The notes under the pieces were generated by a model that had not been told where the DNA came from, did no database searches, and saw nothing but the letters and a program-made list of their open reading frames with translations. Positions 60,451 to 61,726 of a stretch of DNA of 64,000 nt are shown piece by piece. Every line of letters starts with the position of its first letter. Positions within the stretch are counted from its first letter, which is position 1. Origin of the DNA: Ginglymostoma cirratum (Eukaryota); assembly GCA_024137785.1 (NCBI GenBank), contig JAHRHZ010000018.1, positions 35,566,166 to 35,630,165 on the forward strand, read 5' to 3'. A program made the position numbers and the translations under genes.

Positions 60451-60579
60451 GATGAAGAAGGGTCCAGACTTGAAACGTCAGCTTTCCTGCTCCTCTGATG
60501 CTGCCTGGCCTGCTCTGTTTATCCATCTCCACACCTTGTTATCTCAGATTCTCCAGCATCGGCAGTTCCTACTATCTCT
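60451..60579 (+). mobile_element. Short Penelope-like-derived repeat, single arm
   Basis: ATGAAGA-A-GGGTC-CA-GACTT-GAAACGTCAGCTTTCCTGCTCCTCTGATGCTGCC...CCAGCATCGGCAGTTCCTACTATCTCT; several sister copies in the window. Confidence 0.8.
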
Positions 60580-61085
60580 TTTAAGGGGAGTGTTTGTGTC
60601 TAAGGTTGCAACAGCAAAAACCTACTTCATAACTTTCTGAGACTTAATCGGGTTATTAGAAGATCCAACTTTCACTGAGTTTTACTAGGTACTATTTGTT
60701 TTTTTGTAATGAGACAAGACCTGCTGTTTCATTAATCCTTTGCAGACCTGCAGCAATACTTCTGCTTAAATATCATAGAATGGTTACAGCAGGAAAGCAG
60801 GCCATTTGGCCATCGTGTCCGCCCAGATTGCCTTTAAAAGCGACTTACTTCCATTCCCCTGCCTTCTCCTGGTATCCCTGCAAATTCCTTTCCTTCCAAT
60901 CATTGTCACTTCTTTTTAAAAGTCATGTCTGAATCAGCCTTCACAACATTCTAAGGCATTTAATTCCAGATTCCATCCACTCCAGGATAATTTTTCCCCT
61001 CATCACTGCTGCTTCTTTTACTACTCAAATTTAATCAGTGCCTTCTGGTTCATGAACTTTGTGGAAAAAAAATAGTTTCTCTCTA

Positions 61086-61293
61086 AGTAAAAACCGAAAG
61101 AACTGCGGATGCTCTAAATGAGGAACAAAAACAAAGTTCCTGGAAAAGCTCAGTAGGTCTGCAAAGGAAAAGAAGAGTCAACATTTCGGGTCCGGTGACT
61201 CAGTTCTGAGGAAGGGTCACTGGATCTGAAATGTTAACATCTGTTTCCTTCACACAGACCTGCTGAGCTTTTCCAACAATTTTGTTTTTGTTC
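61086..61293. mobile_element. Palindromic mini-element (208 bp) with perfect 14-bp TSD ATAGTTTCTCTCTA
   Basis: TSD at 61072-61085 and 61294-61307. Inverted arms GAACAAAAACAAAGTTCCTGGAAAAGCTCAGTAGGTCTG and CAGACCTGCTGAGCTTTTCCAACAATTTTGTTTTTGTTC. Central GTT-CTGAGGA-A-GGGTC-ACTG-GATCT-GAAATGTT-AAC. Confidence 0.88.
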
Positions 61294-61726
61294 ATAGTTT
61301 CTCTCTATTTGCTCTATCTTAGTCATTTTGAAGCCCTCTACTAAATCTACTCTTAATCTTCTCTTTGTCAAGGGATACAGCCCCAGCATCTCTAGTCAAT
61401 CCATGTAACTGAAGTTTCGCATCCCTGGGTCTGTTCTTTTGAATATTTTCAGTACTTCCTCTCATGCCTTCATCTATGGTGTGGTGGCCAGACCAGATAC
61501 AGTATTCCAGTTAAGGATGAACCAATATTTTATGCATACCCCCTTGGGTCTATATTCTGCAGTCTTGTTTATAAAGCACAGGATCCCAGATGCTTTACAA
61601 TTGCTTTCTCGACCTGCCATGCCCCTTCCAGTGACTCATGTAGCTCTCCCAGGTTGGAGGTGTGCCCCTACATCTCCTGAATTGTCAAAAAACAAGAGAT
61701 ACATTATCAAAAGCTTTCTATTTTAA

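Follow-up and report, generated by a model that had tools for sequence, protein, structure and literature searches.

A hammerhead-bearing palindrome in an ESRRG intron of Ginglymostoma cirratum read as the stub of an endonuclease-bearing Penelope-like element

A 64,000-nt stretch of the Ginglymostoma cirratum genome (contig JAHRHZ010000018.1, positions 35,566,166 to 35,630,165 of the forward strand; "the window" is this whole stretch) carries a short palindrome with a hammerhead-ribozyme-like core. Is such an insert an element that spreads by itself, or the remnant of something larger? A sequence-only reading had proposed a non-coding, non-autonomous derivative of Penelope-like elements (PLEs) that looks like a MITE but moves through RNA. 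We conclude that the element is almost certainly an insertion of an endonuclease-bearing PLE, a PLE stub. Very probably, it consists of two short hammerhead-bearing PLE pLTR ends, placed head to head within one duplication, likely in one insertion event.

The 208-bp insert (61086-61293) was found as that reading had described it, between the two copies of a perfect 14-bp direct repeat, the left (61072-61085) and right (61294-61307) target-site duplications. The two inverted arms were also recovered, as the segments 61116-61161/61255-61300 (85% identical) and 61177-61199/61216-61238 (83% identical), with the refinement that the palindrome lacks full symmetry: some 35 nt at its left end, here called the tail, are unpartnered. 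We number the element from the C of the hammerhead core box (+1). The left arm (61086-61199, minus strand), an antisense copy of a PLE end that aligns to the ends of ORF-bearing copies, spans from about +11, inside the hammerhead and 5′-truncated, via the body and the tail to about +133. The optional PLE tail of about 35 nt (61086-61122, minus strand, inner limit approximate) occurs in this arm only. The right arm (61200-61293, plus strand) is a sense copy without the tail, from −6, in an initiator-like motif, to about +100. The decayed minimal type I hammerhead (61203-61238, plus strand; assigned from layout, alignment with sister copies and fold prediction) starts at the palindrome centre and lies entirely within the right arm, and the left arm holds a 5′-cut antisense copy. 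The RNA of the insert was predicted to form one long hairpin (−107.5 kcal/mol, z = −11.2), and none of 200 shuffled sequences was equally stable. At one shared position in the family body, 8-11 nt are missing from both arms (61160-61165 and 61250-61256), with different edges; the two gaps lie opposite each other in the hairpin, a hint of a cruciform-related event.

ERR exons were found on the plus strand at about 23,933, 26,479, 54,943 and 58,609, and more exons of the ERR ligand-binding domain downstream, beyond the window. The hinge peptide was nearer to ERR-gamma than to ERR-beta in PDB (E = 0.0015 versus 0.02). Because ERR exons lie on the plus strand on both sides and the hinge peptide favours ERR-gamma, the hammerhead motif lies, as had been proposed, in sense orientation in an ESRRG intron, 3′ of the exon at about 58,609. 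The insertion is an old one: contigs from a related organism (flanks about 5% different) span its left junction, and the window copy shares 80% identity with ORF-linked copies, compared with 90.5% within the ORF-linked group. Among the 15 joints listed, of 93, in contigs of public runs, none was an empty site. The window holds further PLE sequences: a solo, tail-bearing copy from a sister PLE family at 60453-60579, about 600 bp upstream of the element, more sister-family copies at about 3460 (plus strand) and 46970 (minus strand), and fragments of the element's own family or a close relative at 10776-10823 and 49835-49903 (minus strand).

The element belongs to a large repeat family. In the 4.36 Gb of genome searched, a 37-mer from the hammerhead had 2,398 exact matches and a 35-mer from the body had 11,528, with none for either control. 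Scaling by the fraction of sampled copies with a perfect 35-mer match (19 of 90 and 11 of 30) gave about 31,000-55,000 arms genome-wide, a rough and probably low estimate. When the 30 best matches to the element were aligned, the outer ends were sharp, the centre was variable, and about 35 extra bases were present at one end. The family occurs in solo, inverted and kilobases-long forms, and palindromes are a minority beside solo and ORF-bearing copies. For these proportions we used a body-anchored sample of 70 loci from the first 100 places listed, reduced to 69 by removal of one duplicate; all samples are first-listed places on a few contigs, and sampling anchored on an arm inflates the share of inverted copies. 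An adjacent inverted arm was present in 23 of the 69 loci. One pair of near-identical palindromes, 1.6 kb apart in opposite orientation and with shared flanks (L092; G000:C8:10760868 and 10762433), is probably a local inverted duplication.

The family's own ORF was reached through copies extended at the 5′ side; a generic GIY-YIG search gave the sister family. There were 74 pattern matches in 70 loci, 11 of which ran upstream into a common pyrimidine-rich stretch, and 6 of these 11 matched the C-terminus of a GIY-YIG PLE protein. In all 30 loci fetched with the 3′ part of the ORF, element positions of about 115-208 lay downstream on the same strand. The PLE origin that had been proposed is borne out by this presence of element sequence at the ends of RT/GIY-YIG loci (30 of 30 sampled). 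The ORF-linked copies end either before or after the tail, just as the window element's two arms do (right before, left after); 11 of the 30 end with the tail when read by eye. Compared at the level of sequence, both window arms match the terminal sequence of ORF-bearing copies, one with and one without the tail. In tandem units, the tail leads into the ORF. One locus, L162, is a whole 3.2-kb unit with pLTR with tail, ORF and pLTR without tail, within a 12-bp duplication. Kilobase-scale head-to-head inversions of the 3′ part of the ORF were seen in seven loci (L133, L137, L142, L146, L147, L152 and L158); they form the large end of a size series that includes the 208-bp element.

Among three peptides scanned from the family ORF, RVT_1 was above the cut-off in one (L148, E = 6.4e-8), and the GIY-YIG Pfam score was below the cut-off in L132 (16.6 bits) and absent in L141. 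The ORF C-terminus is mostly 52-62% identical to a sister-family protein that passes the GIY-YIG (PF01541) cut-off. The top Atlas matches of the ORF were RVT_1/HTH_animal/DUF8422 clusters (score 0.98), and a PDB search with the ORF gave no matches. The sister family has the same plan of hammerhead, body and tail, located downstream of 29 of 30 GIY-YIG matches, the thirtieth being an N gap. When 30 ORF-linked copies were compared with 70 short copies, the majority base differed at one of 100 columns and another column was strongly skewed. By these two columns, the short copies derive from several masters, belonging to more than one subfamily. ORF-less pLTRs with a promoter may have served as additional templates.

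The 3′ ends were bimodal in the 69 body-anchored loci, at about 95-106 or 129-133. Among the 23 inverted copies, exactly one arm carried the tail in 20, both arms in 1 and neither in 2 (p = 2.4e-4 against 0.5). The tail-bearing arm could be either arm of the palindrome. Among solo copies, 15 of 30 had the tail. Target duplications of 9-16 bp (mode 13) were found in 33 of 51 short insertions, compared with 10 of 400 mismatched flank pairs.

The 5′ ends were counted in 63 loci, after six with an N beside the end had been dropped. Of these ends, 31 were at −8 to −1, 4 at −19 to −9, 12 beyond −19 and 16 inside the element, and just one was near the predicted cleavage site. For sister-family copies mined from flanks, 17 of 42 ends were at −8 to −1 (8 of them exactly at −3) and one was exactly at the family's own cleavage site. 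A TATA-like box precedes the initiator-like A (−4) by 29 nt in 22 of 30 copies, and by 31 nt in 22 of 30 copies of the sister family. The pLTR may hold a TATA promoter, as judged from the motif itself; Drosophila Penelope has been described, in the part of the source covered, as having a TATA-less internal promoter (PMC2377424). A check for an extra cap-derived G gave no clear signal: this base preceded the 5′ end in 9 of 19 and 8 of 14 copies, partly from the inverted arm. Many loose ends were seen before 61203 in contigs of each of the four public runs used; contigs cannot show where an RNA starts. A 3′ splice site preceding the hammerhead, of the kind in Drosophila Penelope, was weighed as a cause of the 5′ pile-up and rejected, because many copies keep the AG with no common upstream exon and the sister family is AG-less.

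These ends suggest how a stub might form. Transcription from the pLTR promoter would begin at the hammerhead's 5′ edge, on the first base of stem I. The PLE protein would make a staggered cut of 9-16 nt, and both cut strands would prime reverse transcription on the uncleaved RNA, from two internal sites located about 100 and 135 nt from its start. The two cDNAs would extend toward the RNA 5′ end and would be joined at the centre via microhomology or filler, so that each arm would be cDNA of the initial 100-135 nt of the PLE transcript, one arm per target strand. The anole PLE protein has been reported to cut and extend both target strands in vitro, with two internal start sites that delimit a tail and with uncleaved RNA as template, in the portion of that report at hand (PMC11167929). 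Assembly of the inverted product at insertion is highly probable. For the detail of transcription start and twin priming, our confidence is slightly better than even. We lean to a similar degree toward taking solo and mirror stubs as complete cDNAs of this initial 100-135 nt of transcript, made by a PLE dimer with a different start site for each strand. The window palindrome and similar stubs have no upstream TATA-like box and no ORF, and because of this the product is likely to be a dead end, which has since decayed neutrally.

A PLE origin could also be combined with another route to the inversion, in which one cDNA or an antisense template folds back or primes itself, with hammerhead stalling as the source of the 5′ pile-up. 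For head-to-head PLE junctions, Arkhipova 2013 favours self-priming on an antisense template, in the text accessible to us (PMC3846280), and some of the inner ends in our sample do cluster at +12 to +19, in stem II. Fold-back, however, would not readily give two 3′ ends that match two RT start sites, one on each arm, as seen in 20 of 23 inverted copies. Stalling would be expected to leave ends 3′ of the structure, not past its last 5′ base, and in both families the ends fall in one common register behind a TATA/initiator pair. We regard this route as unlikely and prefer priming from both cut strands.

The sequence-only reading is supported as to PLE origin and the minimal type I hammerhead. 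Its other part, a separate palindromic family that moves itself, finds no support in the copies: junctions, centres and arm lengths differ in all 23 inverted copies, so no junction or length is common to them, and the tail is found on either arm. A dedicated non-autonomous palindromic RNA element (a MITE-like PLE derivative or one similar to a retrozyme) whose full-length transcript is copied in trans is on these counts very unlikely. Candidates similar to the 208-bp form run into the thousands (5,073 at first look, 40 scored), but they were ordered by their similarity to the query. Among the 30 best matches, a few centres occur more than once, and non-autonomous PLE derivatives are known from the covered parts of PMC8557442 and bioRxiv 10.64898/2026.07.22.740005. 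Against this, identical 3′ ends are found on ORF-bearing copies, and no retrozyme-like tandem arrays were seen among 70 loci except one core triple. This locus, L093 (G000:C8:13624952-13625064), has three tandem 38-bp hammerhead cores inside an inverted insertion and is a candidate for a natural arrangement that could permit dimeric folding.

The minimal type I hammerhead layout with one extra A is present in the window copy exactly as first read: stem I at 61203-61205/61236-61238, core box at 61206-61212, extra A at 61213, stem II at 61214-61218/61223-61227, GAAA at 61228-61231, and UH at 61234-61235. Across 20 motifs from the two families, the CUGANGA and GAAA boxes were unchanged, with N7, loop II and H variable, and the family hammerhead shows the core boxes, the extra base, the G10.1-C11.1 pair and a palindromic loop III. 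All diagnostic features of PLE minimal hammerheads listed in the accessible text of PMC4209133 are present in the family. In the loci fetched for the two families, a hammerhead descriptor gave 190 matches versus none in the reversed sequence. In the 20 motifs, 95.6% of stem cells were paired versus at most 57.5% when slid; in the covariation analysis, both members changed in one of eight pairs, and equally high scores came from 30 of 500 shuffles. An Rfam scan, which had been suggested as a check, gave no hammerhead match for the window element at E ≤ 10, with six unrelated sub-threshold matches.

The window copy has decayed. Compared with sister copies, it has four C-to-T changes, two of them in stem II and one in the palindrome of loop III. 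Its first stem II pair is G-U, there is a second wobble, the loop III palindrome is broken, and stem I has 3 bp. Folded alone, its hammerhead had a predicted stem II probability of about 0.04 versus 1.0 in an undecayed copy. Within the whole window element, the hammerhead fold was predicted to cost 26 kcal/mol, and each of the two stems had a probability of 0.000. The window hammerhead is thus predicted to stay buried in the hairpin, without folding, and cleavage of ESRRG pre-mRNA by it is unlikely. Its sense orientation is probably without consequence for ESRRG, because it is decayed and predicted to be buried. Co-option of this copy for a self-cleaving or regulatory RNA of the intron would agree with its orientation and with the age of the insertion, whose left junction also occurs in contigs of a related organism, but is highly improbable given this fold prediction, the G-U at a stem II pair conserved in the family, the broken loop III palindrome and a divergence greater than typical.

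A DNA-transposon MITE with terminal inverted repeats and a chance likeness to a hammerhead has next to no standing: it would account for inverted arms with a flanking duplication and for the lack of an Rfam match, but the ends are asymmetric, solo and ORF-linked copies occur, the catalytic boxes are retained in both diverged families despite variation at N7, loop II and H, and the RT/GIY-YIG linkage refutes it. The variable length of the duplications (9-16 bp) also supports insertion through RNA, as first proposed, and not by a DNA transposon.

Many features of the stub are already published for PLEs, as far as the covered portions of the sources show: inverted truncated pLTRs, a one-sided tail, variable duplications, and a TATA/initiator pair. 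Pen2a_Av has inverted pLTR insertions with a one-sided tail of 30-40 bp (PMC3846280), and a general scheme is given in PMC8557442. The window element resembles insertions of this type in its head-to-head inverted 5′-truncated copy, a tail confined to one end, a target duplication of variable length, and a TATA plus initiator-like motif in the pLTR (PMC3846280, PMC8557442). It differs in that the entire insertion is two pLTR stubs of 208 bp in total with no ORF, and in a copy number in the tens of thousands. Duplications are also longer here than in the rotifer cases (mode 13 bp versus 8-10 bp; PMC3846280).

With metazoan PLE minimal hammerheads (Cervera and de la Pena 2014, PMC4209133), the motif shares the core boxes, an unpaired base between 9 and 10.1, G10.1-C11.1, a short stem I and a palindromic loop III; unlike them, the window copy is decayed. 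Stem II has 5 bp here, in contrast to 7-8 bp in Schistosoma. The same 2014 report, in the text available, describes single motifs genome-wide and opposite-strand hammerhead pairs 100-700 bp apart, and PLE minimal hammerheads that cleaved weakly and not as monomers; cartilaginous fishes are absent from the portion of its survey that was covered. PAc (Poseidon, Anolis carolinensis; Frangieh et al. 2024, PMC11167929) is, in its features, a similar C-terminal GIY-YIG PLE, and two internal RT start sites 3′ of its hammerhead delimit the tail. According to the covered part of that paper, the PAc ORF starts inside the hammerhead, whereas the ORF here comes after the tail. Animal non-LTR retrozymes, as described in the accessible text of bioRxiv 10.64898/2026.07.22.740005, are likewise non-coding, carry a type I hammerhead and are related to pLTRs; they form head-to-tail tandem units, unlike the head-to-head single insertion with target duplication found here. 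By title and start of abstract, we found no paper on this PLE family in cartilaginous fishes, and a look-up by sequence gave no match; the family may be catalogued already in Dfam, Repbase or supplements.

The single copy in the window is of little importance: it is an ordinary decayed remnant and not a new self-spreading element. The stubs as a class provide in vivo numbers on the poorly understood replication cycle of PLEs: two fixed 3′ ends, a one-tail rule, and 5′ ends at the predicted start, not at the ribozyme cut. This pattern fits and extends the in vitro study, so far as its covered text goes (PMC11167929), and makes twin priming testable. For annotators, it is a caution that palindromes resembling MITEs can, in genomes of this kind, be PLE stubs. 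Stubs also seed many long intronic hairpins, which are candidate substrates for editing or small RNAs. If the mechanism is true, the stubs would document, across the genome and in vivo, both PLE twin priming and the use of an uncleaved-ribozyme template.
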